A DNA stretch of 64,000 nt, from the NCBI GenBank assembly GCA_963715945.1, contig CAVQSL010000015.1, positions 270,955 through 334,954 of the forward strand. The letters run 5' to 3'. The position numbers were made by a program, and so were the translations under genes. The notes under the pieces were generated by a model. It was given only the letters and a program-made list of their open reading frames with translations. It ran no database searches and was not told the origin of the DNA. Origin of the DNA: an uncultured bacterium (GTDB lineage Bacteria; Fidelibacterota; Marinisomatia; Marinisomatales; JAHJCW01). Positions within the stretch are counted from its first letter, which is position 1; each line of letters opens with the position of its first letter. Of the stretch, positions 23,279 to 54,076 are shown piece by piece.

Positions 23279-23291
23279 CTTGTTTCCTTTT

Positions 23292-29164: not shown

Positions 29165-29184
29165 TACTTAATCAAATATTCGCT

Positions 29185-30321: not shown

Positions 30322-30324
30322 TAG

Positions 30325-31527
30325 TTAATTCTCCATATCCTCAATTACCGGGAAGTTCAATGCAAAAAATCTATATAGAAGTATAATTAGCGAAATAAAA
30401 CCAACCGTTACTGCTATTTCTGTCCAGGCTGGAATGTAGGGACCTTTCGCATAAAGTGGTGCATAGCCTGTAATAAATACATTGAACCGATTTAATGCTA
30501 CACCGAAAACTACCAAAGCAGCTCCCGAGAATAGCCAAACTGGATTCTTTCTATTTTTTTCAAACATTAAAATAATGAACGGTACTATAATGCCAAAAAC
30601 CATTTCTATTAAAAACATGATTCCTTCAATACTTCCATCAAACAAATATATGTATGTTTCTCTATTTACTATGTCCATCACCTTTGCTCCAAAATATACT
30701 ATTAGCAAAATTGGAATAAATCTTGCTAATCTACTTAACACCGTTATCTCAGGCTTTAACTTAAATGATCTTGATGCAATTAAACTTTCAAAAATCACCA
30801 TTGCAAAACCAACCACAAATGCAGATAACAGAAACAAAAGCGGTAAGACAGGTGTATGCCAAAGCGGATGAAGTTTAGTAGTAGCAATTGCCATCAGCGT
30901 ACCTAAAGATGATTGATGCATACAGGAAAGAACAACACCCAAAATAATAAATACCGACATGAATTTACTTAAAGTTTTATCAAAAATATTCAGTAGCCAT
31001 TCGAAAAATCTATTTAATCTTTTCAAACCGCCTGGCAAGTCTACCTTGCCCATGAATCGCTCTATCACTACCGGAATAAATTCAATATATAATACTGTAA
31101 CATATGCTAAAACGCATAGTCCTACTTCTAGAAGTACCGAATTAGGATTCCAATAAAACGGAATTAAAACATGCCAAATATTATAATACCTTCCAAGGTC
31201 AGAGAATACCCCCAAGGCAACAAAGGTATATCCCAACATAGCTGTTAAGATTGCCGGCCTAATTATACTTTTATATCCCTTCCCATGTATAACATGTGCA
31301 ATAAAAGCCGTCATAAACCCACCGGCTGCTAACGCTACTCCGCAAGCCACATCAATAGCAATCCATATACCCCATGGATATTGATCATCAAGATTGGTAA
31401 CGGCACCAATACCAAATACAAATCTCGCCAATAGCGATAATAAGCCGATAACCGCCAAAACTGTGATTACGATTACTGCCGGTGTAAAATAACGTGGTTT
31501 TTCATATGAAAGCGTACTATTCATCAC
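30325..31527 (-). CDS. NrfD/PsrC/HmcC-family integral membrane quinone-interacting subunit
   Basis: 400-aa ORF with about 10 transmembrane helices. It is translationally coupled to the upstream FeS subunit by an 11-nt overlap, which is the typical NrfC-NrfD pairing. Confidence 0.7.
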   Translation of the reverse strand: MMNSTLSYEKPRYFTPAVIVITVLAVIGLLSLLARFVFGIGAVTNLDDQYPWGIWIAIDVACGVALAAGGFMTAFIAHVIHGKGYKSIIRPAILTAMLGYTFVALGVFSDLGRYYNIWHVLIPFYWNPNSVLLEVGLCVLAYVTVLYIEFIPVVIERFMGKVDLPGGLKRLNRFFEWLLNIFDKTLSKFMSVFIILGVVLSCMHQSSLGTLMAIATTKLHPLWHTPVLPLLFLLSAFVVGFAMVIFESLIASRSFKLKPEITVLSRLARFIPILLIVYFGAKVMDIVNRETYIYLFDGSIEGIMFLIEMVFGIIVPFIILMFEKNRKNPVWLFSGAALVVFGVALNRFNVFITGYAPLYAKGPYIPAWTEIAVTVGFISLIILLYRFFALNFPVIEDMEN

Positions 31528-32404
31528 CTTCCTCCTTTTTCATCACTTTCATAATAATACCTAATAAACCAAACAACATAACCGGTCCTGCAAATCCTTT
31601 AAATATTCCGTGTTGAATTGTTTCGGTTAATTGAGCAGGACTTTTATCACCCAGTTCAGGAAAACCAATGTCTGTAAAAGGTTGGTTTGATAGATACATC
31701 CAAGATGTCCCACCTACCTCGTGTTCCCCATAAATATGATTAACATATCTATCAGGATGGGTTCTAATGCGCTCATTAGCCACCTCTAGTAGATCATTTC
31801 TATGTCCAAAAAGAATTGCCTCAGTTGGACACACTTCAACACAAGCGGGTAATTGACCATTTTTAATTGTTCTATCAAAACATAAAGTACATTTACGGAC
31901 TTGGGGCGTTAACACTTTTTCATATTCGTAAGCCGGAATTTGGAAAGGGCAGGCAATCATGCAATACCTACAACCAATGCATATATCAGGATTATAATTT
32001 ACCGGACCATTTGGGTCCTTGGTTAAGGCTCCAACAATGCAAGCTGAGGCACAAGCAGGATGTTCACAATGCATACATTGAACTTTTACAGTCAAGTCTC
32101 CGCCATTAATTCCTTTTTCGGTATACGAGTTTACAACAGTGTATTGTTCTGAAGTTGGTCTGCGCATATTTTCAAATACTGAAGTGTCAGAGAACGAATC
32201 TAACGGTTGATTCGGAAGCTCATTTGCTTCATTACATGCCCATTCACATCTACGACAACCTATGCAGTAGGTTAGATCAGACAACACACCAAATCTATCG
32301 GGGTTTAATTCATCATGGTGCTTTGCTTTTAGACTTGATACACCAGCTAATGATCCTGAAGCAATAGCTAATGTTTTTAAAAATTCTCTCCGTTCAATTC
32401 CCAT
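31517..32404 (-). CDS. Tat-exported 4Fe-4S ferredoxin-type subunit (NrfC/HybA/HmcB-like) with C-terminal membrane anchor
   Basis: 295-aa ORF with twin-arginine signal ERREFLK. Four Cys clusters are present (CIGCRRCEWAC, CMHCEHPACASAC, CIGCRYCMIACP, CTLCFDR...PACVEVCP). The C-terminal helix is PVMLFGLLGIIMKVM. Confidence 0.8.
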   Translation of the reverse strand: MGIERREFLKTLAIASGSLAGVSSLKAKHHDELNPDRFGVLSDLTYCIGCRRCEWACNEANELPNQPLDSFSDTSVFENMRRPTSEQYTVVNSYTEKGINGGDLTVKVQCMHCEHPACASACIVGALTKDPNGPVNYNPDICIGCRYCMIACPFQIPAYEYEKVLTPQVRKCTLCFDRTIKNGQLPACVEVCPTEAILFGHRNDLLEVANERIRTHPDRYVNHIYGEHEVGGTSWMYLSNQPFTDIGFPELGDKSPAQLTETIQHGIFKGFAGPVMLFGLLGIIMKVMKKEEGDE

Positions 32405-32604: not shown

Positions 32605-33318
32605 TTATTTATTGTCCTGATCTTTTTTAGAGATAGAGAGCGAATCCATTTCTTTCTTTAAAAAATCTTTTTCTTCTTTCTTGGCATCTTCCAAATGAAG
32701 TGGATGTTCACGTTTATACATGTCTTCCGGCATCTTTCCTGTTAACCAAGATGTATTCATTGGATAGACATGTGGGTTAAACAACGTTGAATATAAATGC
32801 CATACTCCAATAGCTAATGTTGCTAGCCATGCTTCCCAATAATGTATTATGAGTGACACATCAAGGAATCCTTTTGGTAGAAATAGACTAAAGTAGTTGT
32901 CAAACCAGAGGAATATTCCTGTTATTATCATTACAGCAGTTCCCCAAACCAGTGCCCAATACTCAGCTTTTTCTATATAACTAAAGCGTTTGAATTGTGG
33001 TGCCTTATCCCGCTTACCAAGATTATACATGATTCTTTCGTAGAATTGTCTAAAATCTACCAGATTTGGCCACATATCCTTGAAAAATGCCTTACCTCTT
33101 GGTGTAACTAAAATGAACAGTATGTGCCAAAGTACTGTAACGATAAATATAACTGCTGAGATCCTATGGATCAATCCTCTTAACTCAAATCCGCGTTCCC
33201 AACCAAAGAATAAATTTGTTATCCATGAATCACTAAAACGCAGTGCAAAACCTGAAATAACTAAAGCAATGAAACTAACCATTGTTAAAGTATGTTGCCA
33301 TACTTCGGAAGTTCTCAT
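32605..33318 (-). CDS. b-type cytochrome membrane subunit (FdnI/HydC-like, Ni_hydr_CYTB family)
   Basis: 237-aa ORF with 4-5 transmembrane helices carrying conserved His residues (WQHTL, LIHRISAVIFIVTVLWHILF, IIHYWEAWLATLAIGVWHLY). It starts 4 nt after the 11-heme gene. Confidence 0.7.
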   Translation of the reverse strand: MRTSEVWQHTLTMVSFIALVISGFALRFSDSWITNLFFGWERGFELRGLIHRISAVIFIVTVLWHILFILVTPRGKAFFKDMWPNLVDFRQFYERIMYNLGKRDKAPQFKRFSYIEKAEYWALVWGTAVMIITGIFLWFDNYFSLFLPKGFLDVSLIIHYWEAWLATLAIGVWHLYSTLFNPHVYPMNTSWLTGKMPEDMYKREHPLHLEDAKKEEKDFLKKEMDSLSISKKDQDNK

Positions 33319-33322
33319 TCTT

Positions 33323-34570
33323 CTAACTTGCGGCTTTCTGCATAGAGTTCACGATTTGCCGAATTAGATCTATGATCCAGTGAATTAACATAGCACCAAT
33401 GATTACAATTATTGCAATGATATATATTTTTTCTATCATATCGGCAATTGGAGTATGCAGACCGCGGTTGGTAAAACCATGTATTGGTGTAGCAGCTAAT
33501 CGTTCGGAAATCTTTGGATGGCATTCTCCGCAAGTATGCTGAAGATTCGTTGGATGGATGGATGACTCTTCGTTTTTACTGGGTAGTATTCTGTGAACAC
33601 CATGGCAACTAGCACAATTCGCAACATGCGTATCACCAGACTTACTTTTTAATCCGTGATAACTGTCTACAAAAGTACGCAATCTTCCAGCCGGCATACC
33701 ATATTTTTCGTTAAGTCGAGCAGAATCATGACAGGGGGCACAGGTCATTTCTGCAACTTTTGCTTTTGAAACGGGAGAACTTGGATCATCAGGAGAAATA
33801 ATTCCATGTTCACCGTGACAATGTGTACAAACGGGAGCATCTGTTTCTCCCCTTGCAGCCAATTGTCCATGAATTCCATCCCAATAATCTTTTTCAACAC
33901 CTTTATGACATTTACCACATGTTTTTGGAATGTTGAAATGGTTAATTGTAGACTCTGCATGGCCAGGTGAATATATCTTGTGTGCAGTTTCACCGGTGGA
34001 GTGACAGTCATTACATGTGGCAGCTACATATACTCCCCCCATAGAAGCCTGTCCATGTACACTTTTTTCATATATTTGTCCTGGGTGATCAATTAACATA
34101 TCATATCTAGCCGTAAGATCTAGGTCTTCATGGCATTTTCCACAGGTCGCTGGCAGATTTGTAGGATGTGCCATAGAATTTCGATCTTCTGATGGTAACA
34201 CATTATGATCGCCATGGCAATCAGCGCAATTTGGCATATCAGGAACTTCTCCAATTAGTGCAACACCATGAGCTTTGTATTGATCAGCGGCGTCTTTGTG
34301 ACAAGTTCTACAACCCTGGTCGGCAACCATAAAATTAGTAGCTTCACGATGTGGATCGGTATTTTTATCGCTATGACAATCTAAACAACCAAGACCCTTG
34401 TGTATCGAGCGCGAAATGTCCTTTTCTATATCAGTTCCGTGTGCACTCTCTTCATGACAATCAACACACGAATCTTCATCTATGTAGTCATAACCCGTAC
34501 CTTGAGAAAATAATAAGGATATTGGGACTATCAGAATGAGAGATAATATTATCTTATTTAATTTGTTCAT
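33323..34570 (-). CDS. 11-heme c-type cytochrome with C-terminal membrane helix (doubled-CXXCH type)
   Basis: 415-aa ORF with a signal peptide and 11 CXXCH motifs. Repeated CxxCH...H...P.S...TC..CH spacing is visible. The C-terminal helix is IYIIAIIVIIGAMLIHWII. Confidence 0.85.
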   Translation of the reverse strand: MNKLNKIILSLILIVPISLLFSQGTGYDYIDEDSCVDCHEESAHGTDIEKDISRSIHKGLGCLDCHSDKNTDPHREATNFMVADQGCRTCHKDAADQYKAHGVALIGEVPDMPNCADCHGDHNVLPSEDRNSMAHPTNLPATCGKCHEDLDLTARYDMLIDHPGQIYEKSVHGQASMGGVYVAATCNDCHSTGETAHKIYSPGHAESTINHFNIPKTCGKCHKGVEKDYWDGIHGQLAARGETDAPVCTHCHGEHGIISPDDPSSPVSKAKVAEMTCAPCHDSARLNEKYGMPAGRLRTFVDSYHGLKSKSGDTHVANCASCHGVHRILPSKNEESSIHPTNLQHTCGECHPKISERLAATPIHGFTNRGLHTPIADMIEKIYIIAIIVIIGAMLIHWIIDLIRQIVNSMQKAAS

Positions 34571-34587
34571 ATGCTACCTATCTTATT

Positions 34588-36555
34588 TTAATTAGAGATT
34601 TTACTTATTAAGTCTTTGTACTTGTCTAGCAATCCTGAAACTAATTCTATATTATGAACACCTAGACTTTTATCGTTTTCTATTTTTTCGATTCCATTTC
34701 TAATCGAATCGACTTTTTGCCGATTGGCTTTGTCCAAATCATAATATACTAAGTTATTTAAATTTTGCTTGATCTCAAAAATCATTGTTTCGGTATTATT
34801 CTGCCAATTCCTTACTAGTTCATCATAGTTAGACTCATGGCAATTACTGCAATTCTTTCCCTGCTCCGCGGATATTTTTTCTTCATCATCTTCATGACAA
34901 TTGTTACAGTCAATATCAGCTTCAAACATAACGTCCGGCAAGATTGTGTCAGAAATTTCTATTGTTCCATCATATAGATGTGCTTGAATTTGGTGACACT
35001 TTACACAATTAGTTTCTTCTTGTGAATGATGACAGGTTAAGCACGCATCCCTTGTAACTGTTGTTTCACCATGAGAAGTTTTATGAGAATGGCAGGAAAG
35101 GCATTCAAGTTTATTCTTTTGAATGTGCGTTTCATGATCAAATAGTATTCCAAATGCTTCAACTTTTTTATTTTCCTGCCCATAATGACAATTTTGGCAT
35201 TTTGATGGCTTTGCAGTATTATATAGCTGGAATGGCGGCAAAGACAAGTCAGAACCGACTGACTTTAATACTTTTTTGAGATTACCATAGGCATCTAAGA
35301 GCAACTGATCAGAATATGCCACATTATGAACTACATTTCCTGTTTCAACTAATTGATAATTATATGTAGCATCTTTTAATAGTTTTGTATTACTGCTGGA
35401 CATTTTTCCAACACTATTAATTTGGTCTAAGCCAAGCTTAACTAAACTTAGCTTTTCTTTCATATTGTCTTCCCATTGTTGATACAGTCTAGCATATCCT
35501 TGGCCATGACATTTTTCGCAGGATTTACCAGTAGCGCGTGTTTTGCCTGAAATACCAAATTCTGACTCATGGATAAATGTGACATGCTTTGCAATTTAGT
35601 CCTGCCGTGAACATGGGATTGGGATGATTGACAACATTTTTACCACCTGTTCCAGAGAAAAGATCAAACTGCGCTCTATGTGGTGTTTCATGACATTCTT
35701 GGCAGTCCGGGAATATATCTGCTGTGCGTGCAATAGATTTATGTTGAATTGGTATATGACAGTTTTCACATTCTACCTTGTGGTCTGTTACATGCATTTT
35801 GTGAATAAATTCTGGATCAGATATTTTTTCAAGCTTGCCTTTTTCTGCATGACATGAACTACAGCGACCTTCTAACACATCACCGGTTCCAATTACCATT
35901 CCACCATGACAATTTGTACACTCAATTTTTTGTGCGTTTACAAAACTGTGATCATATTTTACCGGTGAGTTACCACTAGCGACGGGAGCTATATGACACC
36001 AAGTACAATCATTCATGGATTTATCATCATCAACATTTTTAAAATGACATAGGAAACAAGTTGATTCTGTAACAGTCATGTGTTCGCCTTGAACAATTTG
36101 TGAATGGCAACTGGTACAGCGCAATTTTTTATTGCGTTTTAAGTTATTCAAATGAGAATTATGATTGAAATGGATATCTTGTTTAAATATTACATCCTTA
36201 TTTAATTGTTGCTCTGCATGACATCCTGAACGCAGACAGCTTGCATCTTCTATTTCTGCTAATGGTTTGCTCTTTTTGTACACTCCTGTAAAATAATTTA
36301 CAACCATAGATGCTGCAGTAAACTTTCCTTTGACTTTAGATTTGAATCCAGGTGGAAAATGACATTTTGTACAAGTTACATCTGAATGACTGGACGTTTT
36401 CCAGTCTTCAACATAAGGTTGCATGAAATGGCATGATGAACAAAAATTAGGTCTTGATGTTAATTCTGCAGCACCCCACAATAGTGCTAATAGCAATACA
36501 ATACTTGACAGAATGAGACGAAACTTATTTTTGCGATTTTACCGATACGACTCAT
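34588..36555 (-). CDS. about 17-heme cytochrome with NapC/NirT-type membrane-anchored N terminus (frame break near 35580; N terminus uncertain)
   Basis: ORF 35567..36496 has the NapC/NirT signature (TSRPNFCSSCHFMQPYVEDWKTSSHSDVTCTKCH) and 10 CXXCH. A bridging frame (FIHESEFGISGKTRATGKSCEKCHGQGYARLYQQWEDNM) joins it to ORF 34588..35463, which has 6 CXXCH. The ATG at 36555 (MSRIGKIAKISFVS) needs one more shift. Confidence 0.7.
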
Positions 36556-36683
36556 TAGCGGCTAGCCAAACGTACCAAATAAAATCAACACCAATAAAAT
36601 TAATCCGATTAATAAAAATGTATAACCAATAATGAAAGTATAAAATCTTTGCCCAACGAGGTAGTGGTGGAATTAACTTAGAC

Positions 36684-37374
36684 TTATATTCTATTTTTGT
36701 AAGACTCTGCAAATTCTAGGGATCTTTCTTCCTCAAATTTACCTTCAGGAATTCTACCCGGTAAAAATCACTTCGTCCATAGGGAAGGCTCCTGGTCTAA
36801 GATGAGTATTAAAGAAGTGGACTACAAAAATGAAACCAGTTGCTAATAATGCTTCTTCGGAATGAATTATATGAGCAGCATTAATTATCCATCCCGGGAA
36901 CAATGATGAGAACGCCTCAGGAAACCACAATGTTAATCCTGATGACCCAATAATTAACATACCCCAAACAACTGCAAAATAATCAAACTTCTCCCAATAT
37001 GTCCATTTACCCCAAGCCGGTTCTTCCTTTTTAATTCCAACAAAGTATGCCATGTGATTAAAGAAATCTTTTATGTCCTGAACTCTTGGGACCAAACTGT
37101 TGTACACCGGTGAATATACCTTTCTCTTGCTTTATAAATGCTTTATGAAAGACCTTTCCAAGATGGATAACAAATACAACACCCATAGTGAATGCCGCAA
37201 TTCTATGCAATAATGCTGCTTGCTCGAAACCAATGACATTATGCACCAACCATGTAGCCATTTTGGAATGGGCATATTTTAGTGGAAGACCTGTTCCGGC
37301 AAGTATTAAGAAATGAAAGTGCCATTAAAGAAATGTAGAATTCTTTCCAATATAGCAAATCTTTCAACTCGCAT
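36684..37374 (-). pseudogene. b-type cytochrome membrane subunit (paralog of 32605..33318), about 3 frame breaks
   Basis: The ATG at 37374 gives MRVERFAILERILHF. ORFs 37058..37261 and 36754..37107 carry the His-containing helices (LLHRIAAFTMGVVFVIHLG, IIHSEEALLATGFIFVVHFF). The tail GRIPEGKFEEERSLEFAESYKNRI ends at 36684. Confidence 0.6.
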
Positions 37375-37381
37375 TTTGGTT

Positions 37382-39076
37382 TTAATTAGGTTTTTTAATT
37401 GGACCATGTTTAATCCGTCGAATCATTAATCTTATTAACCAAAGAACGGTATGACTGCCAAATACTGTAACACACTCACCAAGCAACCATAACATAAAAG
37501 TGTTAATCCAGCTTAATACTTTGTTATCGGATTTTGTATGAGGTGTATAATGTTGCAAAAATTGAACAAAATTGTCATTAACATTATCATGGCATTGTGC
37601 GCACGTAGCAATTATATTATCTTTCCCAACGGAAGATGCTGGATCATCACTTGGTAATATTGAGTGATTATCATGACAGGATACACATGTAGCGAATTTT
37701 TCTCCTTGATATCCAAGCTGGTACATTTGTCCATGATAGGAAGTCTCATAACCTTCTACTACATCAGGATTTAATTGAAATTGCATAGTAAGATCACGAT
37801 CACCATGGCATCGGCTACATAATTCAACAATAGAGTGGCCGAAAAATTGCTCTTCTGATTTACTGATTCGTTTTTCATCATGACAATCAATACATCCTGG
37901 TGATTCTAAGTGACCTCTCGCACGAGTCACATAATGAGTAGAATTTTCGTACTGCTTTTGTTGCTCCTGATGACAATCAGCACATGATTTTTCTAATGCT
38001 CTATCTTTTTCATGTTCGGGTGCCATATAATGATATGTATGACAATCTCCACAATTTGATTCTTTACCCATGGCAACTTTAGCAATCTCTTCGCGATGAA
38101 TTGCGCCATGAGCTCTGTCTTCTTCAATTATTAAACTACCTTCATGACATTTAATACAAATTTCATCTAATTTTATGTCAAATACATTAGTAGCAACTGC
38201 CACCATGCATTTCTGTTTGGTGCCCCGTATGGCAAACAACACATGTTTCCAATCGAGGATCGTCATTTTCATCGTGGACGGTGAATTGAAGCTTCATACC
38301 CAGCATGGCAGTTCATACAAATTTTATCTAGCTTCGCAACCGATACAATGCTTTCAGTATCACGAGGTGACAAAACCCGATGTGTTGCGTGACAATCAGT
38401 ACAAATAGGAGCTTTTAGGTTTCCTGATGCTACTTGTTTATAGTGAGCACTATTATCATAGTTTTGCGACTTCTCGAGCATGGCATCCACGACACTCTTC
38501 TGTTATTTTTATTTTCCAATCTTTTTTTGAATAACGCTGATCTTTCATCTTTTTCATGCGGTGAGTGGCAAGAAACACAATTAAGATTATCATGTTTATT
38601 GGGCAATCCCCAATGTGCAGAGTTTAAAAAATCATCTAATACATCTTTATGGCAAATTCCGCAGACTTGTCGTGGCTCACCTTTCCAGGTAACTGAATGT
38701 GTACCATGACAATCAGTACAAGTTGGAATAGATTTATAACCTTTCTTTCTTAAGCGGATCAAAAAAGTGATCGATAAATTCTTCTTGGGCACCTTCGTGG
38801 CAATTTCCGCAGAAAGGTAAGTCTAAATTTTTTGCATGCGGAAAATTCTTCTACACCATATAGATCCTCATGACAATCTACACATGCAAATCCTTCGTGT
38901 GGAGAGTTCTCGAGGTGTTCATCGGTTACATAAAGTGATACTTCAATTCCTCTAAGAACTTTTGTTAGCGTATCATCTTCATGGCAAGATACACAAACAT
39001 CATTATCTTGTGAGAATAGAAGAAGGGGAATTCCAATAAACAATACTAATTTTTTGAAATTCCCCATCAAAGTCAC
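37382..39076 (-). pseudogene. about 17-heme c-type cytochrome with C-terminal membrane helix (longer paralog of 33323..34570), at least 6 frame breaks
   Basis: Fragments 38759..39076 (signal peptide plus 2 CXXCH), 38430..38792, 38269..38490 and 37382..38272 are collinear. Additional CXXCH motifs (CGNCH, CRGCH, CVVCH) are readable only in bridging frames. One break sits on a T7 run at 38522-38528. Confidence 0.65.
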
Positions 39077-39090
39077 TTAAAAATTATATT

Positions 39091-39676
39091 TTATTTAGAC
39101 GGATTCGGATGAGCGAATTCAGCAACCTTTTCATCGTATTTGAATGGTTTGTGGGTTGGACTGTTTTCATTATGACATGCAGTACATGTTGCTTTGTTAA
39201 CTTTTAATAAACCAACCGAAGCGGCTGTAATTTCACCGGCAAGAATTGCCTTTTTGACTTTACTTGATTTAAATTCGCTACCAGCTCCATGACAAGCTTC
39301 ACAACCAACGGCTTGTAATCCTTCCATTCTTTTCACTGCTTTTGCACCGTCTTTATCATCTGCTGTAGGATTCCAGAAAGTGTCACCTTTTACTTCATAA
39401 CCACCTTTCCCAAATCCGGTTGTATGGCATTTTAAACATTCAGGTGCTTTCCATGCTTCAACTTTAATTCCTTTTTCCTTTGGCAATTTTAGCCGATTTC
39501 TCGGATTTTAACGTTTCAAAAGCCTTAGCATGAACACTTGCTTCCCATTTTGTGAATTGAGCGCCTTTTTCAGTTTTATTATGGCACATTTTGCAGCTGG
39601 CACTTCCAACATATTCGAAACCCTGCGCAAGTATAAAAGTCGATAATGTTAGAAACACGATAATTAATTTTTTCAT
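39091..39676 (-). CDS. tetraheme cytochrome c (cytochrome c554-like family), one frame break at a T5 run near 39475
   Basis: ORFs 39464..39676 (signal peptide, CKMCH) and 39091..39486 (CLKCH, CEACH, CTACH) together give about 195 aa. Confidence 0.7.
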
Positions 39677-39696
39677 TCTGTCTCCTTAATCTATTT

Positions 39697-40096
39697 CTAT
39701 AGTTCGTTATGACATGCAAAGCAACTTACTTCAGCAACCCCACCAGATAAATCTTGTTCCATGACAAGCTTTACATGTCTGAATATCTTCTTTGCCGTGA
39801 AAGTTAGCACCATCAGGTAATCCCACCCAAATACTAAATGCCGGATGCCCGCTTGGTCCACCAGCATGGCATTTATAACATGATACACCGCTAGTACCAC
39901 CAAAATAATCATGTTTTTCTAGTCCACCATGGCAAGCTTTACATTCTTCAGTTCCTGTTACAGCAATTTTTGCCATATGCGAATTTTCGGAACTAGGGTC
40001 ATTCCAATCACTTGGATGCATTGTTGGTTCGCCAAGCTTTGTACAGCCTGTTACAAGAAATATTATAAAAGATAATATTAGAATTTTTTTCATCAT
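39697..40096 (-). CDS. tetraheme cytochrome c lipoprotein, one frame break near 39740
   Basis: The start MMKKILILSFIIFLVTGC|T contains a lipobox, and its ATG overlaps the upstream TGA. Heme motifs are CKACH, CYKCH and CKACH, with CFACH in the terminal fragment (ORF 39697..39912). Confidence 0.65.
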
Positions 40097-40938
40097 CAAT
40101 CTCCTGTATGGCATTTTAGACAAGAGGAATCTTTTGATGGAATGTGACAAGTGGCACAGAGTTCAGCTTCACTTGCCGCAAATTCTCCGTGTAATCCGCC
40201 ACCTTTAACAGTGACCCAATTATGAAAATTATGATTCATCGGCATTACTTGATTCTCGACATGGCAGGAATAACAATCTTCAATAATTTCATGACAAGTT
40301 GAACATTCCATAACACCTGCTTTTGCCTCAAAACCGTGCGTAAACATATAATCAACCGGATGTGTTTCCGGTGTGTACTGTTGAAGCTGATGACATTCTT
40401 CACAACTATTATTGGTATGGCATAATGCACAATTGCTTTCGGTGCTGCTATTCATTTCTGCGCCATGTATTTCTTTCCATGCTAAATTATGAGTTTTTGG
40501 ACCTTTATCTAAATTCATATGGCAGGACTGACAGTCGGATTCATTCCAAACATTTGGATATCCAATTTCACTGTCATTATCAATATAGCTATGGCACTTA
40601 CTACAATCATCAGTATTTGCTAAATGAACATTGTGTGAAAAACCAAGGTTACTAGTCGTCCAACTTTTGCTGATTGGCAACGGTCCATCAGGATTTGCGT
40701 GGCAATATTCACAATGCTCCTGTGGCAGTATCTCCGTCATGACACTCTATACATAAATCCATCTTCGGGAAAATAGTCCATGACTGTCCCTCTGCTTCAG
40801 CAACACCGGTGTGACATTCACTGCAGGACAATTCCATGTCCTCTACATGTAAACTATGTTGGAAGAGTATCCGTCTTTATCTTGACCAAAAACAAAAATT
40901 AACGGTATTAAAAATACACTTATCTTAAAACGCCACAT
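40096..40938 (-). pseudogene. 11-heme periplasmic c-type cytochrome (MtrA-like heme density), two frame breaks
   Basis: The ATG at 40938 gives signal peptide MWRFKISVFLIPLIFVFGQ. A bridging frame carries CSECH and CIECH. ORF 40096..40740 carries 9 more CXXCH. The whole protein is about 280 aa. Confidence 0.65.
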
Positions 40939-42131
40939 TTATTATTATACCTCCTCTTCCATCTTGTTCAAAGTAGGGATTTGTTGAAAATCGTCCGTAT
41001 AGTTTCAACATTATAAAATCTTTTGGTTGCCAACCTACCCATCCATAAGCACCTGATGATGATTTAAGATCGGCAAAATCGCCATAATCTAAAGCATTTA
41101 ATGATACGCTTCCACCAAAACTTAACGGTCCACTCAGTTTATGTGTAGCGCCCAAAATTAGTCCGAACATCTTATTATCGCCTTCAAGTCCGCCCAATAT
41201 TGAAGCCTGAATTTTTTTATAATTGACAGAGCTGACTAAAAAACTTTTTCCCTCTTCCGCAAGGCGATAGGAAAGTTGATTGCGCCATAATAAATCATTG
41301 GCAATCAAAGAATTAACATCAAATGTGATAGTGGGGGCAATCCCAATCTTATCACTAAGTGTTTCAAAATCAGTAAAATATTCAAATCTTTTTTGTCGGA
41401 AACCTAAACCTAAAGTATGGTCTCCAATTTTTTTACTAAGGCGAATCCTTGCATAATTTAATTTTGTTTCGCCTATATCAAATGCTATCGCATTAGAAAT
41501 GCGGATGCCAAATTTTGATGTATTAAAATATATTCCAGTAAATGGGTTAATTCCATCAGCATCGCCTTTCATCCAAAAGGATACTGCAAGATTCTTTCCT
41601 ATGCGTCCTTTTGACCAAGCTGCCATGAAATATGTATTATCTGTAAATAATGTGTCGCTAAAATCTGTTACTGCTTTTAATCCGCCGATCAAACTAAGAG
41701 TGCCTAATTTTTCTGTATTTAGGTCAAACTGTGCACCATCAACACGAGTATTCTGCAATGCGTTCCAAATTGCAATGCGGCCAACTGATAGTTCATGCTT
41801 GCCAATATCAAGATCGGCTGTTAAATGATGAACTCGGAGAGGATTTTGGAAATGATCGTTCTCAGAGCCATATTCGAACAATGCATCAACCCCAAACTTA
41901 CTGCCGAATTTCTGATCGTAGCTGAACTAGACTGCGCCAATGTGCCTGTTCTTCTGCGTCTGTCATACTAAGGCGCGGATACATAGCGGATGATGAAATT
42001 GATATATTTGGTTTTGAACCAAATACAGTTGAAACATTAAGAATAACAATTAACAAAAGGAGTTTTGTTGACAATATGATTTTTCTTTTTGATTTCAATT
42101 TAAAATATTTCATCATCCGCCTATTTTTCAT
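40925..42131 (-). CDS. outer-membrane beta-barrel protein (porin-like, about 400 aa), one frame break near 41920
   Basis: ORF 41898..42131 supplies the signal sequence (LLLLIVILNVSTVFG). ORF 40925..41881 shows alternating hydrophobic strands, is Gly/aromatic-rich, and ends in ...GGIIINVAF, the C-terminal Phe typical of barrel proteins. Confidence 0.55.
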
Positions 42132-42143
42132 TTTAATTATATA

Positions 42144-43121
42144 TTAAGACCCAGTTACATAGTTAAACTCACCAGGTGCGGACCACTTATGACTTTGTAA
42201 ATCGTCATAAATCATGCCATTTGCACTGAATTTGAGAGTTTTAGCATTATAACCTAGGGCGTTTAACCACGCTGCAATCACTGAAGCAGTTTGTCCTGAC
42301 CAACAATAGATAACAATTTCTGCATCAGGATCCAATATGTTTAAATTTGCAATATTCAACTCACCCGGTGTAAGCTGGTACGCTCCAGCAATATGTCCAT
42401 AAAGGTCCCAATCGGCTTTGCTCCAATAACAATATATATCGAAGGCTGATGGGTTTGCCAGAACATCTGTATTATTAATTCCATTAAGACCGTCAACCAC
42501 TGAATTTGCAATCTGATAATCAAGAATTGCCGCGCCATCTTCAGAGCCTGAATCCAATTCAGGTGTGTCATCATAATTTGGTAATGTAGTTGAGGCATCA
42601 TCATCTATCCAACTACCAGGATAATCATTAGCTTTATTACCAATCAAATTATCCCACAAATTGAAATCACTGTGCCAACTGCTCATACCCCAGAGTAATG
42701 ATTGAGCAGATACGCCAGCTAAACGTAATGCTGCAACACCATGACCTGAATCGTGACCACTATAACAAGCAACAACAACTGGTAGGTTGTTAGTGTTATT
42801 TGCAGCTTCATATGCAACCACATCAGCAAGTGCTACACTGTGAGCTCCTGTTATATGTCCATCTTCAAAATCTGGAGTACCTGCAAAGTATTTGTCACCT
42901 TTGCGAATATCCATGATGAAGTAGCCTGCCGGATTGGCATTCACAGTTGCTGCAGATACGCCCCAACCATTTAATATTTCTGGTAGGTCTAAATTGTTCT
43001 CAAGCATGAAATCAACCATTTCATCAAACTCAACAACACCATCTTCATTTTTATCGCAACCCGCCATGAAAAAAGCGAACATCACGATCAATATGAAATA
43101 CAATACTTTTTTTGTTTTCAT
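42144..43121 (-). CDS. periplasmic lipoprotein with two rhodanese-like domains
   Basis: 325-aa ORF with lipobox FFMAGC|D. There are two active-site-loop-like segments, VVVACYSGHDSGHG and IVIYCWSGQTASV. Confidence 0.7.
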   Translation of the reverse strand: MKTKKVLYFILIVMFAFFMAGCDKNEDGVVEFDEMVDFMLENNLDLPEILNGWGVSAATVNANPAGYFIMDIRKGDKYFAGTPDFEDGHITGAHSVALADVVAYEAANNTNNLPVVVACYSGHDSGHGVAALRLAGVSAQSLLWGMSSWHSDFNLWDNLIGNKANDYPGSWIDDDASTTLPNYDDTPELDSGSEDGAAILDYQIANSVVDGLNGINNTDVLANPSAFDIYCYWSKADWDLYGHIAGAYQLTPGELNIANLNILDPDAEIVIYCWSGQTASVIAAWLNALGYNAKTLKFSANGMIYDDLQSHKWSAPGEFNYVTGS

Positions 43122-43148
43122 TTATTATTTGTTCCTATCTTTTGTTTA

Positions 43149-44600
43149 TTAAGGTTTTTGCCAAGTATTTGGCACTTTATCATCAACTACTACAGATGTA
43201 TTTGCTATCACTTCATCTGGATAATCACTTTCTACATCACTTTTCCATAAGAATAATTCCGAATTTGCATCTGCATTGATACCCTGGGCATGGCAATTTA
43301 AAAAACAATAACCGCCGCCTGTAGTATCGGTTTGTTGTGTAAATCTTTTTATGTTATGCGGGCTTGAATATTCCCAAGTTGGACGCACATCATAATTTGC
43401 TAATTGGTCGTGCCCCCAAGGTCTATAGCTATCTCTAACTATCGGGATATGCCGTACAACGATAAATTTTCCGTCGTGTAAATCTTGGTTATAATTGTAA
43501 CCAATTTTAAAATCAGGATATTCTTTATAATCTCCTGCTCCGGTATGTACATCAGTTTCATCATGAGATTCTGCATAACCTGTTTGCCACCATTCGGATA
43601 AATCTCCACTAGGATCTTTAGTATGACAGCTATTGCAGTTCCTATATGGTTGCGAATGGCACACAAAGCATGCCAACCCTTCCCCCTGTCCCGGCCAGTG
43701 TACCTGATGATAAAAGTTTGGTGTCTCTAAATAGCTATGACAGTCTTCGCAATTTGGAAGGTCAGGCAGATGATAACGTGTAGCACTACCACTTGCATCA
43801 GCATGCATATTTTCCTTATGGCAATCCAAACATGTCATATATTTTGTTGAATGAATATCAGGATCGTTCCCTACCAAATGTCCTTCAAAATCAGTTGCAA
43901 TTCTGCTACCATGACAAGCAAGGCAGTTGTTGGTTTGGTCCGGTGACTTTTTAAAACGATGACTTTCTATAAATCCGCCTGCAGCACTGTTAGGTCTACT
44001 TACGTGGCATTGTCCGCAAGTAGTATGACAACTCATACACTCCCTATCAAATCCTTCGGTTAACTCTGCCGGCAATCCATTAAAATTATTATGGTCTTTG
44101 TCTGCCCCCAACTCCCGCTGAGCAATGGTTGTTTGTTCTCCCCAAAGCTTAGAGTGCATACTATTGGCATTGGTAGCGACTATATCTTTATGGCAAGGAC
44201 TACAATTAGATTCAGCATCCATTGAGGGATCTCTTACAAAACCAAAATTTTCAGCGTCATGAGCTGTAGCAAATTCTGCCGGTTCTTTACCGCCGTGGCA
44301 CGTTACACAGCCAATTAAAGCATGCGCTTTATCAATATCTGCGTATGATTTTTGTCTTCCAACCAATTTGATAAAAACTTTTTCCCATGGTTCCAACGGA
44401 ACCACTTCGCCGCCTCATCCACCACCACTGCCACCTGTTGCTTCACCCGTTGCGTACATTTTTAAAGTTGATTCACTAGTGTGGCAACCTTCGCAAGTTG
44501 ATGGGTCTCCCAAATCAACTGTTTCGTGACCGGGATCACAAGCAATCCACAAAAGTGATAATAAAGGAACGGCTATTATTTTAATTTTTTTCATCATCAT
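43149..44600 (-). CDS. decaheme c-type cytochrome lipoprotein, interrupted by one in-frame TGA (44415-44417)
   Basis: ORF 44415..44600 (lipobox LLWIAC|D, CEGCH) and ORF 43149..44405 (9 CXXCH plus one CFLNCH) are in the same frame. They are separated only by GGSGGG-TGA-GGE. Confidence 0.75.
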
Positions 44601-45033
44601 CTATTACAACATACATTTTATTTAGTTTACCTGCGCTGCAGGCATATTTATATACTTCGCAATCGCGACAGCTCGATTCACGACAAACTTTTGAACCTTG
44701 GTCGGTTAATGTCCAACATACTACCAGGCCATTTTTATATGCTTTACAGGCCTCACAGTCTGTTTTAGAACATTTACTTTTTATTTTCCAACACGGCATT
44801 AAAGCTAACAATGTGCGGACACCTGCAATGTTCATCTTGTTCTCAGTTATCTGCTCGCGGAAACACTGTATCCATTCTAGATCTCTTTCGGAATAAAGTC
44901 GGTGACCCGATGGGGTTTTATGGGCAATTACTAACCCTTCCCTTTCATATAGTCGCAATAATTCTGGAGAAACACCAAGTTTACTGGCAGCCATGCCGAT
45001 ACCAAGCAACGGTTCGTTTGAATCAAATGTCAT
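44581..45033 (-). CDS. MerR-family transcriptional regulator with Cys-rich C-terminal domain
   Basis: 150-aa ORF with a MerR HTH (IGMAASKLGVSPELLRLYEREGLV...SGHRLYSERDL). There are 10 Cys in the last 85 aa or so, including a duplicated CX4CX2C motif (CSKTDCEAC, CRESSCRDC). Confidence 0.75.
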   Translation of the reverse strand: MTFDSNEPLLGIGMAASKLGVSPELLRLYEREGLVIAHKTPSGHRLYSERDLEWIQCFREQITENKMNIAGVRTLLALMPCWKIKSKCSKTDCEACKAYKNGLVVCWTLTDQGSKVCRESSCRDCEVYKYACSAGKLNKMYVVIDDDEKN

Positions 45034-48787: not shown

Positions 48788-51660
48788 ATGTACAAGCAAA
48801 CCTATAAATATAAATTATTTGCGATCTATTTAATCATAATTGCTTTCATTGGTCAAGTCAATGCTCAAGTTAAATGTTGCTTTGTGTCGGCAATAGCATA
48901 ACTTGGGGAAGCGGGTTACAGAATCCCGGCGTTGAAAGTTATCCGTCTCAGTTAAAAGTGCTCTTGGGAAGTGACTATATTGTAGCAAATCGCGGAGCAC
49001 CCGGCAGAACCTTACTTAAATACACTTCACTACCATACATCGGATCACAGCAATGGACATATTCAATCGCGACTCCTCATGACATCGTAATTATTCTATT
49101 GGGAACCAATGACAGCGATGAAGACAATTGGGTCGAAAGGGATCATTTTAAAGAAGACTACTATGAATTGATAGACGATTACAAGAATTTCCCCGGCAGT
49201 GAAGATCCCATATTTATTCTTGGATTACCACCTCCTGTCTTTGATGAATCGGCGGGACATAGAAACGCCCCTATTATTGATGAAATTATTCCTATGATAA
49301 AACAGATTGCTAGTGAATTAAATTTAACAATTGCAAACTTTTATAATGCATTAGATGGGAAACCTGAACTTTTCATTGATGGCGTACATCCAAATGCGGA
49401 AGGGGCTGCTATAATGGCATTAGTTGCATATAATGCAATACAAGAGGCCATTTCAATATCTGACCCACCACCGGATACACCCACAGGACTAAAAACCATA
49501 TCAGGAAATTCCAACATTAGTCTTGAATGGCATGCAAATACAGAGGACTGATCTTTTTTCATATACGATATTTCGATCACTAGAAAAAGATGGTGTGCAA
49601 GATTATATTGGAACCACACTAAACCAGACACTACCTTTACCGATAATAATGTTATTATTAAATCATATCTATTATTATTCAATTGATGCAATGGATATTC
49701 ATAAGCACGCCAGTAAAAGAACAACCCCAGTCGCAGGGAAAACAATTGACCAAATCGCTCCTATAGCCCCGAGTGGATTACAGGTATTTCTCGAAGCCGA
49801 TTCAGTAAAAATTGATTGGATACCAAACCCTGAAATTGATTTGGAAAAATATTATATATATCGCAATCCTATATTGGGTGATATTCAACAACCTTCAAGT
49901 ATTGTTGGAACTGTTTATGCACCTAAAAGTGATTTTATTGATTTAGACTACGTTTCAGCAACAAACTACTATTATGGAATTAAAGCAGTTGACATCTCCG
50001 GGAACCAGGGTCCAATATCAAATATAGCAAATGTCACTACCCAATCTAGGCCATTAAGTTCAGATATTACATTAAATTTATACGAGGATATTCAACATTC
50101 ATTCAGTGAATTGGATTTTCCGTTTTCTGATGCAGATGGTCATAATTTAGATAAAATAATTTTTTATAATACTAATTATCTAAATTATTTTTCTTATGAT
50201 AGTGTTTTAGTTGAATATTCAATTACCTGCGATGATATCTCAAAACTTGCATTTGACCCCATTCTTAATGAATTTGGTAATAGCTATGCCACATTTGGAT
50301 TTAAGGTTGTAGATAGCTTTGGCAGCGCAAGTAAAGACACAAGTATGGCAATAATCAATTTAAACCCCGTTAATGACGCTCCCCACATCGACTCGATTAT
50401 AGATTTACATTTTATGGAAGACTCAAAAAATATTTTAATCCCAATATCAGGCATTAATGCTGGTCCTGAAAATGAAATACAAACTCTCTCAGTTACAGCA
50501 TTTGATGATAAAGTCTTTTATCAGCATCAGGGATATTCAATATATTAGTGCTGAAGATACCGGATTTGTCATATTAGATCCAGTAGATAATATATTCGGA
50601 ACCATACCTGTGACTGTTATGGTAATTGACGATGGTGGGGCGGACAATGGTGGTATAGATACATTTTCAACAAAATTTAATCTACATATTTCACCGATAA
50701 ACGACCCTCCACTATTCAATTTGCTGGATAATATACAAATCCCCGAGGATTCAGAAACAAGCGTAGAACTAACCAGCGTTAAGGCTGGACCTTGGGAAAC
50801 CGGTCAGCAAATAAGTATCAGTGTCCAGTCCAATAATACTAATATTTTACCGCATCCAACTCTAAACTATTTTAGTCCTGATACAACTGCAATTTTAATT
50901 TTCTCAACAATTTCTAACATTTTTGGTACTACATCAATTACAATAACTATGTCTGATGATGGTGGTGCTGATTTTGGGGGGAATGATTCAACATCATACA
51001 CGATACCTGTCGAAGTCACATCAGTCAATGATTCACCGATAAACTTTAATATAGTTACACCATCAGTTGATTCAACTCTAATAATTAATAAGTCTAATTA
51101 TTTAAACACTTTTTCTGTCAGTTGGGAACCGTCTACTGACATCGAAAACGATCCTATTTTTTATGATGTTATCTTTAGTGGGAATTTATCAAAACTTTCA
51201 CGTTATGGTTTGAGTTCAACTAATTCTGAATATGTTTTAAAAGACATTCTATCCAGCACCGATACGATATCTGTTACTCATGGTGAGATTTCTATAGTGG
51301 CATCTGATGGCGAGTCGCAAACATATGCCCTGAATTCTGGAATCCCGATAACTATTGATGGTCGTTCATTCGCTCCGGCAAAATTACATCTTGATCAAAA
51401 TTATCCTAATCCATTCAACCATACTACTTTAATTGGATTTGATCTACCAAAACAAACAAATGTTTCTATAATTATCTATGATTTATTAGGAGAAGAAATC
51501 ATCAAATTAATAGATAATAAAAAACATGATCGCGGTTATAATACAATAACATGGACATGGACTTGACAAACACAATAACAATGTTACAGCAGGCATTTAT
51601 ATTGTACAAATTCGAATGGGAAGCGAAATTAAAAATAAAAAATTGGTGTTTTTAAAGTAA
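48788..51660 (+). pseudogene. large secreted SGNH hydrolase-FN3-FN3-cadherin-like-repeat protein with T9SS tail, at least 4 frame breaks
   Basis: The ATG at 48788 starts a signal peptide (MYKQTYKYKLFAIYLIIIAFIGQVNAQ). Downstream are an SGNH block I (LLCVGNSITWGSG), FN3 signatures (YYYGIKAVDISGNQGPIS) and repeated PVNDAP/SVNDSP modules. The T9SS tail (LDQNYPNPFNHTTLIGF...) is completed in another frame (AGIYIVQIRMGSEIKNKKLVFLK, stop at 51658-51660). Confidence 0.65.
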
Positions 51661-52945: not shown

Positions 52946-53434
52946 TTACGATTTCGATTTATCTTTCAAAGATAAAGTTAAAATAAATTCCGCCACCGGT
53001 TCATTTCCTGATAATTCAGGAACGGTGGCGGTTATTTTTAATGGCATGTTTACCCGTTCACCGGTGCTGATGGCAGACTCAATCAATTTTTTTACAGCTT
53101 GTCCATCGTTGCAGGTAAAGTGAGTGTCACCTTCGGGACGTTTTAAGAATTCTGCCTTAAAATCTTTAAATACCAATGAAATATTATGTCTGCTTTTACG
53201 AATTAAATCCATTGCCAATACGCCACCGGCAACATCTGCACCAATTGATAAAGCACCAAAGTACATTGATTTAAGGTGATTTTTATTCCTACGCTTAAAT
53301 GGGATTTTAATAATAGCTGTTTTGTTATTTAACTCAATAACAGAAGGTCTACAATAAAATATTAACGGAACCTTGCTTAATCCAAAATATCTTATAAACC
53401 ATGTTGCTTTAATTTTCTTTGATATAAGTTTCAT
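52946..53434 (-). CDS. hotdog-fold protein, DUF4442/YiiD-C-terminal-like thioesterase candidate
   Basis: 162-aa ORF. The pattern RRNKNHLKSMYFGALSIGADVAGG resembles the PaaI/DUF4442 hotdog family. Confidence 0.4.
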   Translation of the reverse strand: MKLISKKIKATWFIRYFGLSKVPLIFYCRPSVIELNNKTAIIKIPFKRRNKNHLKSMYFGALSIGADVAGGVLAMDLIRKSRHNISLVFKDFKAEFLKRPEGDTHFTCNDGQAVKKLIESAISTGERVNMPLKITATVPELSGNEPVAEFILTLSLKDKSKS

Positions 53435-54076
53435 TGTTTAATAAACCATCCTTTAAATTCATATAAATTATTAAATACTCTCCTGCCGGAAGCTATTAGT
53501 CGATCATAGGTGGCATGACCTTGAGCAATTAACACACATTTTGTTCCAATTTCATCTGCTACTTCAACATCGTGTATTGTATCACCAATTAATAATATTT
53601 CATTTGGTTCAAATTGTAATTCGTTTATCCACGAACGACCAATATCGACCTTACTATTTGCATAATGATTATCCAATCCCGATATTTTTATAAAATACTT
53701 TTCCAGTTTGTGATACTTCATTAAGTCTTCTAACATTTTTTGCTTTGCGGCAGAAAGTAACGATTGAGAAATCCCCATTTCAGAAAATTTTTCCAACAGT
53801 TTCTCTAGCACCATCCTGCAATTGAGCATCATACATTCGCTTGGTATATTCATCAATAAACTCGGTTCCGACTATGTTAAACGGTATTTTTTCGAAATCG
53901 AAACCCAATTTTTTATAATAATTAATCACAGGAAAAGTAAAAAATTCTAAATACTTCTCCTTTTCCACTGCAGGTAGTCCATACTTGAGCAATAAAATGT
54001 TTATTGCTTTGATTGACAACCAATTGTCATTCAGAAGCGTACCATTCCAATCCCACACAATGTGCTTTATTTTCAT
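53431..54076 (-). CDS. HAD-superfamily hydrolase (one frame break near 53800-53850)
   Basis: ORF 53780..54076 has HAD motif I (HIVWDWNGTLLND). ORF 53431..53856 has motifs III/IV (LLIGDTIHDVEVADEIG). Confidence 0.6.

Follow-up and report, generated by a model that had tools for sequence, protein, structure and literature searches.

We analyzed a 64,000-nucleotide stretch of contig CAVQSL010000015.1 (assembly GCA_963715945.1) from an uncultured bacterium, hereafter called the window, and focused on a minus-strand gene cluster that encodes multiheme cytochromes, a tandem-domain rhodanese and an outer-membrane beta-barrel and that we interpret as a candidate electron conduit across the outer membrane. 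GC content is low across the window (~35-38%), all genes of the studied cluster lie on the minus strand, and close homologs of the window proteins carry the labels Candidatus Marinimicrobia/Neomarinimicrobiota. Heme-binding CXXCH motifs are strongly concentrated in this region: from 28 to 44.6 kb the minus strand holds ~88, compared to 4 in the remaining window on both strands, which excludes chance as their origin. The genes studied here represent the upstream end of this very large cytochrome island, and the operon is conserved as a whole in relatives from the Marinimicrobia and Calditrichota. For comparison, we scanned one genome per species, which yielded 593 related loci; the best 80 were kept and, together with the window, make up the 81 loci considered below.

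The lipoprotein multiheme cytochrome gene (43149..44600, minus strand) comprises 483 codons, one of which is an in-frame TGA. As an earlier note on this DNA had stated from the sequence alone, the protein carries a lipobox (LLWIAC|D) and 10 CXXCH motifs. In addition, we found a conserved CX3CH motif (CFLNCH, residue 432, window 43307..43290) that is kept in 71 of 74 family members, and the protein described as a decaheme cytochrome probably binds an eleventh heme via this unusual motif. The in-frame TGA (44415..44417, read from 44417 to 44415; SGGG*GGEV) is conserved in homologous loci and confines the mechanically called open reading frame (ORF) to 43149..44405. Gene callers split the homolog in every close relative into pieces of 60-63 and 408-418 amino acids, and most database homologs begin directly after the TGA; accordingly, most members of the TGA type are mis-called as a 60-amino-acid ORF and a ~415-amino-acid ORF.

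We read this TGA as a selenocysteine (Sec) codon, which would place Sec at residue 62 (U62) in the motif G-U-G-G-E and make the cytochrome a predicted selenoprotein. This assignment is strongly supported by comparison among the loci, because the codon is conserved in relatives, is replaced by cysteine in 20 of them and is followed by a covarying hairpin. Codons were typed by in-frame translation upstream of the match, and the U62 column holds TGA in ~56 of the 81 loci (~55 loci plus the window), TGC or TGT in 20 (Cys, G-C-G-G), and neither in 4-5. The Cys-type loci come mostly from Ignavibacteria, Melioribacter, Bacteroidota and Chlorobiota, and members with neither residue show Y, Q, L, H, D or R at this column. 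Two other explanations for the TGA were rejected. A true stop that yields two proteins is unlikely: the 61 codons upstream supply the lipoprotein signal and the first heme motif, while the 418 codons downstream hold nine CXXCH motifs and no signal peptide, so that the downstream part alone could be neither exported nor loaded with heme, and full-length Cys homologs exist. An alternative genetic code in which TGA specifies Gly or Trp is ruled out, since TGA is the ordinary stop of 4 of the 32 long ORFs in the window, including a normal-length TonB receptor gene and the 11-heme cytochrome gene described below.

The hairpin resembles a selenocysteine insertion sequence (SECIS) element and has the form GUGGUUCC-GUU-GGAACCAU (44387..44405, minus strand). 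It is the minimum free energy hairpin, starts 9 nucleotides after the TGA and spans nucleotides 9-27 past the UGA, with apical loops of GUU, GGU or GGA in the different loci. Across 56 TGA sequences, its covariation score is 0.389 compared to 0.131 in shuffles (reached by 0 of 500), and slid-window controls gave 0.05-0.14. In the same sequences, the stem contains 46 double-sided compensatory cells where 15 are expected, and amino acid residues change in a manner that keeps the pairing; for example, V-V-P...L-E-P becomes V-V-P...L-A-P when GTT becomes GTG. A contiguous stem of at least 5 base pairs is present in 39 of 56 TGA loci and in 2 of 20 Cys loci.

The conservation pattern of the cytochrome itself is in line with a catalytic role. 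Among 74 full-length family members, 11 conserved heme-binding motifs stand against only 9 conserved histidines outside the motifs, so that at least two hemes would lack a conserved histidine as distal ligand, as in catalytic multiheme enzymes. Besides the lipid anchor, U/C62 is the only other conserved cysteine outside the heme motifs in these members. The protein matches no NCBIfam family at E<=0.01, and a PDB search with the family profile gave no significant relative, only marginal matches to NrfB and NrfA. The comparison with MtrC made in the earlier note did not hold up in this respect: there is no match to the OmcA/MtrC family (TIGR03507) and no sequence or fold match in the PDB, and the protein is a predicted selenoprotein with 11 heme sites. 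Six homologs in JGI data (P0082, P0087, P0093, P0160, P0170 and P0184) are labeled 'thiosulfate/3-mercaptopyruvate sulfurtransferase', which is probably annotation bleed-over from the adjacent rhodanese gene. A study of Dethiobacter similarly describes a multiheme cytochrome that is encoded with rhodanese genes and was earlier 'misidentified as a thiosulfate sulfurtransferase' (PMC10376724).

This rhodanese gene, which the earlier note had omitted, sits between the cytochrome and the barrel and encodes a tandem-domain lipoprotein of 325 amino acids (42144..43121, minus strand; lipobox FMAGC|D; Pfam Rhodanese PF00581, 1.2e-16, two stretches). Both active-site cysteines, C119 and C273, are 100% conserved in 55 homologs, and the lipobox cysteine is conserved in 96%. 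Where the sequence extends far enough past the cytochrome, the rhodanese follows it directly in 49 of 52 Sec-type and 20 of 20 Cys-type loci (69/72), and it occurs somewhere within the locus in all 72. By contrast, it is found in none of the six loci that lack Sec or Cys (L020, L037, L042, L088, L089 and L090). Three of these, L088-L090, encode cytochromes 53-56% identical to the window protein and keep the MerR gene, the cytochrome, the barrel, a multiheme cytochrome of 274-276 amino acids and the downstream genes in the same order, and they differ from the window order just by the missing rhodanese. Fisher's test for the adjacency gives 3e-7, a value that is no true probability because the loci are related. 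Sec/Cys and the rhodanese have thus been gained and lost together.

This joint inheritance points to a sulfur-type respiration at the cell surface rather than to a copy of the Shewanella metal-reducing system. We weighed it against a plain metal-oxide conduit, an analog of MtrCAB or Pcc that would serve Fe(III), Mn(IV) or other insoluble acceptors and in which Sec and the rhodanese would be accessory, acting for example in redox protection or maturation. The arrangement of a lipoprotein cytochrome, a barrel and a heme-dense periplasmic cytochrome does match Pcc-type architecture, and the operon versions without Sec/Cys and rhodanese may be generic electron conduits. In addition, one Cys-type homolog (L058) comes from a metagenome-assembled genome (MAG) labeled Melioribacter roseus, and PMC10376724 cites M. 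roseus in culture as able to reduce Fe(III). Nevertheless, we consider a plain metal-oxide conduit quite unlikely, because the joint presence or absence of Sec/Cys and a rhodanese with two active sites across many phyla argues for sulfane sulfur or selenium chemistry, and the two hemes without conserved histidine ligands look enzyme-like.

The barrel gene (40925..42131, minus strand; likely true start at 42113) has intact homologs of 395 amino acids. The signal sequence and C-terminal ...IIINVAF on which the earlier note had based its claim are both present, but the span of 1207 nucleotides is not a multiple of three: the gene is broken by a +1 indel at 41928, and its N-terminal 77 codons lie in a different frame from the ORF at 40925..41881. 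It is followed by the gene for a periplasmic 11-heme cytochrome of ~280 amino acids with a signal peptide of the general secretory type (40096..40938, minus strand), which is broken by a -1 indel at ~40873 and a +1 indel at 40716. All 11 CXXCH motifs described earlier are there, but only when these two frameshifts are read through, since nine lie in the ORF at 40096..40740 while CSECH and CIECH are in another frame; homologs are intact and carry 11 CXXCH. The ATG at 40938 overlaps the barrel stop codon (40927..40925) by 14 nucleotides, as previously observed, and the two genes are translationally coupled. In all 19 loci in which both were detected, the barrel gene directly precedes the 11-heme gene, overlapping it or lying within 11 nucleotides. 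The co-occurrence expected of the three genes is thus borne out by this adjacency and by the conservation of the operon in relatives, with the qualification that a fourth member, the rhodanese, had been overlooked.

A structural model of the barrel could be obtained from an intact homolog that is 84% identical to it (P0002; AlphaFold2, predicted local distance difference test [pLDDT] 82, predicted template modeling score 0.68). After a signal helix, the model has 22 strands, with a longest loop of ~19 residues and neither a plug nor a long constriction loop. Foldseek detected no close structural relative of this model: best among the matches is the 24-strand FimD usher (TM 0.5), and porins with 16-18 strands score 0.3-0.45. 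There is no Pfam or NCBIfam family for the barrel, and an exhaustive profile search of 1.84 billion representatives found only 49 barrel clusters, all of ~375-420 amino acids. Kinship with MtrB was not recovered, as the barrel gave no match to Pfam MtrB/PioB (PF11854) and MtrB was absent from the top 50 structural matches. The earlier note had held that its idea would fail if the barrel belonged to a substrate-porin or FadL/OmpA-type family whose lumen, with fewer than ~16 strands, is too small for a cytochrome; with 22 modeled strands and no family assignment the barrel came through this test, and the model supports a sheath rather than a substrate porin by that measure. Further features that are generally expected of porin-cytochrome systems are found together here, namely at least ~20 strands, no plug, adjoining heme-dense and lipoprotein cytochromes, and co-inheritance.

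A profile of the 11-heme family detects GSU1996, an elongated c7 polymer, in the PDB with an E value of 1.2e-25 and also ActA of alternative complex III (ACIII), and its similarity to MtrA is marginal (E 6.6e-4). Since there is in addition no match to the DmsE family, the earlier likening of this protein to MtrA has to be revised: it is far closer to GSU1996.

These data bear on a second alternative, in which the barrel would act as a substrate channel that admits polysulfide or selenite, with both lipoproteins and all cytochromes acting in the periplasm and without any wire. Geobacter reduces selenite and tellurite less well when ExtI is deleted, and ExtI has been proposed to act as a porin for uptake (PMC5877670); moreover, MccSep acts in the periplasm, where the entry route of polysulfide is unknown (10.1101/2025.11.18.688581). 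We still regard a substrate channel as unlikely. For a small anion, a 22-strand barrel with short loops and no plug would leave an exceptionally wide opening, and the barrel is strictly tied to the 11-heme gene by the 14-nucleotide overlap and the adjacency in 19 of 19 loci. It is also kept where Sec/Cys and the rhodanese have been lost, which is easier to reconcile with a structural role beside the cytochrome than with a channel for sulfur or selenium.

None of the three genes described in the earlier note is an uninterrupted ORF in the window, and the cytochrome genes downstream of the 11-heme gene are likewise fragmented. As a reference for indels we used L087, a short-read contig from another sample that is 97.5% identical over 2.16 kb; blastn against L001, which is 75% identical, was too noisy for indel calling. 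Relative to L087, the window differs by exactly three single-base indels, +1 at 41928, -1 at ~40873 and +1 at 40716, and both the barrel and the 11-heme gene are intact in L087. L001, L002, L004, L005 and a JGI contig also encode an intact 395-amino-acid barrel and an intact 11-heme protein of 279-280 amino acids. With intact copies both in the 97.5%-identical strain and in more distant relatives, the frameshifts are most likely consensus indel errors of the assembly. Genes outside the cytochrome cluster are broken as well: a gene for a GDSL lipase/type IX secretion system (T9SS) protein (48874..51566, plus strand) is split into 3 ORFs compared to 950-960 amino acids in relatives, a HAD hydrolase (53431..53856) and a NUDIX protein (54142..54603) are shortened to 141 instead of 214 and 153 instead of 209 amino acids, respectively, and a D-Ala-D-Ala-ligase-like gene (17502..19460) is in pieces. 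Such breaks suggest single-base indel errors across the contig.

Alternatively, the frameshifts could be real and the cluster in this genome a decaying, non-functional pseudogene array. Compared to the 97.5%-identical strain, a 2.2-kb stretch carries three single-base indels that are uncompensated and lie outside homopolymers, and many further indels lie between 32.6 and 40 kb. We give little credence to this explanation, as the broken GDSL lipase, HAD and NUDIX genes outside the cluster and the 700-kb length of the contig fit a long-read consensus with indel errors, and as the substitutions still resemble those under purifying selection (97% amino acid identity).

Downstream of the 11-heme gene, the operon continues on the minus strand with genes that plausibly link it to the quinone pool. 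These include fragments of an 831-amino-acid multiheme cytochrome fused to a cytochrome b domain (Ni_hydr_CYTB), a putative CbcL-like quinol oxidoreductase with several frameshifts (approximately 36500..39076); a homolog of a 660-amino-acid NapC/NirT-type multiheme cytochrome (34588..36496; Pfam Cytochrom_NNT, 1.1e-8; split by a frameshift near 35572); and a homolog of a 654-amino-acid multiheme cytochrome with 11 CXXCH motifs fused to cytochrome b (32605..34570; split near 33339). Further on lie genes for a 4Fe-4S protein, an NrfD/PsrC-like membrane protein and a 12-heme cytochrome (29185..32404), which would form a second quinone-interacting module; this set resembles the membrane anchor of Qrc, ACIII or Psr.

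Such quinone modules leave the direction of electron flow unfixed, and the system might thus operate in reverse, oxidizing reduced sulfur outside the cell, be it sulfide, elemental sulfur, thiosulfate or metal sulfides, and passing electrons inward to the quinone pool. TsdA and SoxAX, enzymes with His/Cys-ligated heme, oxidize thiosulfate, and the authors of the MccSep study note that the chemistry of MccSep resembles the reverse of these reactions (10.1101/2025.11.18.688581). An exported rhodanese has also been linked to metal-sulfide oxidation in Acidithiobacillus, as cited in PMC6148476. The window holds nothing that would be particular to an oxidative sulfur metabolism, however, and the only characterized cluster that combines a Sec multiheme cytochrome, a rhodanese and a porin is reductive; we therefore hold an oxidative role to be very unlikely.

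Taken together, we favor the view that the locus encodes a porin-cytochrome electron conduit with an outer end specialized for chalcogens, to which we assign a probability of roughly 60%. The trans-outer-membrane wire put forward in the earlier note is supported as far as the porin-cytochrome module is concerned; what changes is that its best analog is ExtHIJKL/MccSep, that a rhodanese accompanies its outer cytochrome, itself a predicted selenoenzyme, and that its genes are interrupted in the window. In this model, electrons would be drawn from the quinone pool and would probably enter through the downstream cytochrome-b-fused and NapC/NirT-type multiheme proteins. The 22-strand barrel would most likely sheathe the heme-dense 11-heme cytochrome, which we infer to be inserted in it, and the conduit would deliver electrons to the lipoprotein cytochrome with its 11 heme sites and U62, working together with the tandem-rhodanese lipoprotein. 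Both lipoproteins are presumed to lie at the cell surface. There, the rhodanese cysteines could take up sulfane sulfur as persulfides, with elemental sulfur, polysulfide, thiosulfate or the corresponding selenium analogs as the source; the U62 selenolate would attack the rhodanese persulfide, and a neighboring heme without a conserved distal histidine would reduce the Se-S intermediate to sulfide. The substrate and the outward direction of electron flow in this scheme are likewise inferred.

Several observations weigh against this interpretation. MccSep is reported to be periplasmic, and the Geobacter analog is thus no proof of surface chemistry (10.1101/2025.11.18.688581). With respect to the Sec assignment, no Rfam SECIS model matched, the window being empty at the gathering threshold and the surroundings of the TGA empty at E<=10; the hairpin lies inside coding sequence, so its conservation is partly driven by the protein, and its energy alone is unremarkable (z = -1.6). 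The Cys-type locus L049 (TGT), from a MAG labeled Actinomycetota, keeps the hairpin. It is the sole Cys-type member with a perfect 8-base-pair SECIS-like hairpin and a Sec-type flanking peptide (GCGGAVSPLEAW), and by sequence it looks like a recent Sec-to-Cys conversion. The 64-kb window contains no selA, selB, selD or tRNA-Sec, and a tRNA scan of it was empty; for KSB1, a phylum that includes TGA-type members, selABD genes have been reported (PMC9012183). The loci compared for rhodanese linkage are phylogenetically related, so that the Fisher p value overstates their independence, and those without Sec/Cys represent approximately four independent lineages. Furthermore, the barrel and 11-heme genes are frameshifted in the assembly of this genome, and the AlphaFold2 model of the seleno-cytochrome is poor (pLDDT 63), with no Foldseek match to it below an E value of 0.3.

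The remaining genes of the cluster and its surroundings complete this picture. The first gene of the operon, in the window as in all relatives, encodes a MerR-family regulator (44581..45033, minus strand; Pfam MerR_1, 6.8e-13) that overlaps the cytochrome start by ~20 nucleotides and occupies the same position in L001, L002, L004, L005, L006, L088 and L089. Its C-terminal extension contains ~12 cysteines (CWKIKSKCSKTDCEACK...CRESSCRDCEVYKYAC) and could be a metal, redox or sulfur sensor. Between the 11-heme gene and the cytochrome-b fusion lie genes for a small lipoprotein cytochrome with 3 CXXCH motifs, a homolog of a 128-131-amino-acid protein in relatives (39731..40093, minus strand), and for a frameshifted homolog of a ~195-amino-acid periplasmic multiheme cytochrome (approximately 39091..39700, minus strand). 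Genes for System II cytochrome c maturation (ResB/CcsB, CcsA) on the plus strand adjoin the 12-heme module (26225..32404), and an HmuY-like protein adjoins a TonB-dependent receptor with a carboxypeptidase-regulatory domain (22750..25418, minus strand), likely a heme-uptake pair beside the cytochrome island. Farther away, the window encodes two paralogous CotH-kinase-domain proteins with FlgD-Ig and T9SS C-terminal sorting domains (1199..3175 and 7462..9447, plus strand), between which lies a large InlB-B-repeat/phosphodiesterase protein (3388..5886). In two other loci, L061 (4633..7113) and L058 (1526..4006), from Ignavibacteria and Melioribacter, we noticed a 422-amino-acid heme-free, outer-membrane-like ORF (...NTNF/NTNL) that is followed within 10 nucleotides by a 14-heme cytochrome of 402 amino acids and then by a 7-heme lipoprotein. 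This second porin-cytochrome-like set lies 3 kb from the Cys-type cytochrome/rhodanese pair.

Beyond the window, the cytochrome family is widespread, with at least 593 matches at one genome per species in Marinimicrobia, Calditrichota, Ignavibacteria, KSB1, Eisenbacteria, Krumholzibacteria and others. We tentatively suggest that the Sec/Cys 11-heme cytochrome and the tandem rhodanese could constitute an undescribed selenoenzyme family, independent of MccSep, that reduces sulfur, polysulfide or selenium at the cell surface via a conduit; this goes further than the reading of the locus itself, and we hold it with less than even confidence. If true, sulfur respiration in anoxic marine water and sediments would have a major route that has gone unrecognized. 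In oxygen-deficient ocean water, Marinimicrobia (SAR406) are abundant; what they do in the sulfur cycle has been inferred mostly on the basis of polysulfide-reductase genes. It was not until 2025-2026 that a multiheme polysulfide reductase dependent on Sec was demonstrated, in Geobacter, and how sulfur is delivered to that enzyme is still open (10.1101/2025.11.18.688581; PMC13510729). The cluster described here brings together the same ingredients in unrelated phyla, namely a seleno-cytochrome, here of a different family, a rhodanese lipoprotein, a wide outer-membrane barrel and quinol-linked cytochromes. The operons in which Sec/Cys and the rhodanese were lost together are natural 'knock-outs' that make the hypothesis of extracellular sulfur or selenium respiration testable, and our analysis singles out hundreds of genes whose present annotation is wrong, either as two ORFs or under the name 'thiosulfate sulfurtransferase'. 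Among heme proteins, a 2026 review of prokaryotic selenoproteins names ExtKL, the GSU2204 family and an OTR-type octaheme and no others (PMC13188914). In the literature we searched, no Sec multiheme cytochrome has been described from Marinimicrobia, Calditrichota or Ignavibacteria, which is not proof of absence.

Finally, the cluster shares features with several characterized systems. Its logic is that of MtrCAB, with a surface lipoprotein multiheme cytochrome, a barrel sheath and a heme-dense periplasmic cytochrome, but gene order differs and the window cluster adds a rhodanese and Sec. The Shewanella MtrB barrel has 26 strands, whereas 22 are predicted here. Similar to the Geobacter Pcc (OmaB/OmbB/OmcB) and Ignavibacteria-type clusters, a small barrel of ~400 amino acids immediately precedes a multiheme cytochrome, and a lipoprotein cytochrome is encoded close by; sequence kinship of the barrel with the 422-amino-acid Ignavibacteria protein is not demonstrable (hhalign probability 18%). 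The 11-heme protein shares c7-type triheme-like modules and a similar heme density with the dodecaheme 'nanowire' GSU1996 (PDB 3ov0), which differs in being a free periplasmic protein with no barrel encoded alongside. In the Sud/Psr system of Wolinella succinogenes, a periplasm-exposed rhodanese-type sulfur carrier passes polysulfide sulfur to a terminal reductase. The window cluster likewise appears to pair a rhodanese-type carrier with a terminal reductase, but Psr is an inner-membrane molybdoenzyme and not a seleno-multiheme lipoprotein linked to an outer-membrane barrel.

Among known systems, Geobacter ExtHIJKL/MccSep comes closest, ahead of MtrCAB and Pcc. In the G. sulfurreducens cluster extHIJKLMNOPQS, ExtH is a rhodanese lipoprotein, ExtI is a porin-like protein of ~45 kDa and ~21 strands, ExtJ is a small protein and ExtKL is a selenocysteine pentaheme cytochrome, and 10- and 12-heme cytochromes and a cytochrome b are also encoded (PMC5877670, PMC6148476). 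ExtKL is identical to MccSep, a polysulfide reductase that is essential for elemental sulfur respiration and uses U325 and a Cys-ligated heme; members of its family have been reported chiefly in Desulfobacterota and Nitrospirota (10.1101/2025.11.18.688581; PMC13510729). The likeness is one of composition: in both cases one operon encodes a rhodanese lipoprotein, an outer-membrane protein of ~400 amino acids with 21-22 strands and a Sec multiheme cytochrome, along with further 10-12-heme cytochromes and cytochrome b, and both seleno-cytochrome families include Sec and Cys variants and a SECIS-like hairpin after the UGA. The window cytochrome differs in that it does not match NCBIfam NF040886, has 11 heme sites instead of 5, carries its Sec near the N-terminus (residue 62, G-U-G-G-E) instead of at position 325 (D-G-U-P), lacks a second conserved cysteine outside the heme motifs that would be equivalent to C239, and is a lipoprotein, whereas MccSep is reported to be periplasmic. 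Moreover, a heme-dense periplasmic cytochrome is translationally coupled to the barrel where the Geobacter cluster has the small, heme-free ExtJ, and the window system belongs to the Fibrobacterota-Chlorobiota-Bacteroidota (FCB) group, in contrast to the Desulfobacterota and Nitrospirota that harbor ExtHIJKL.

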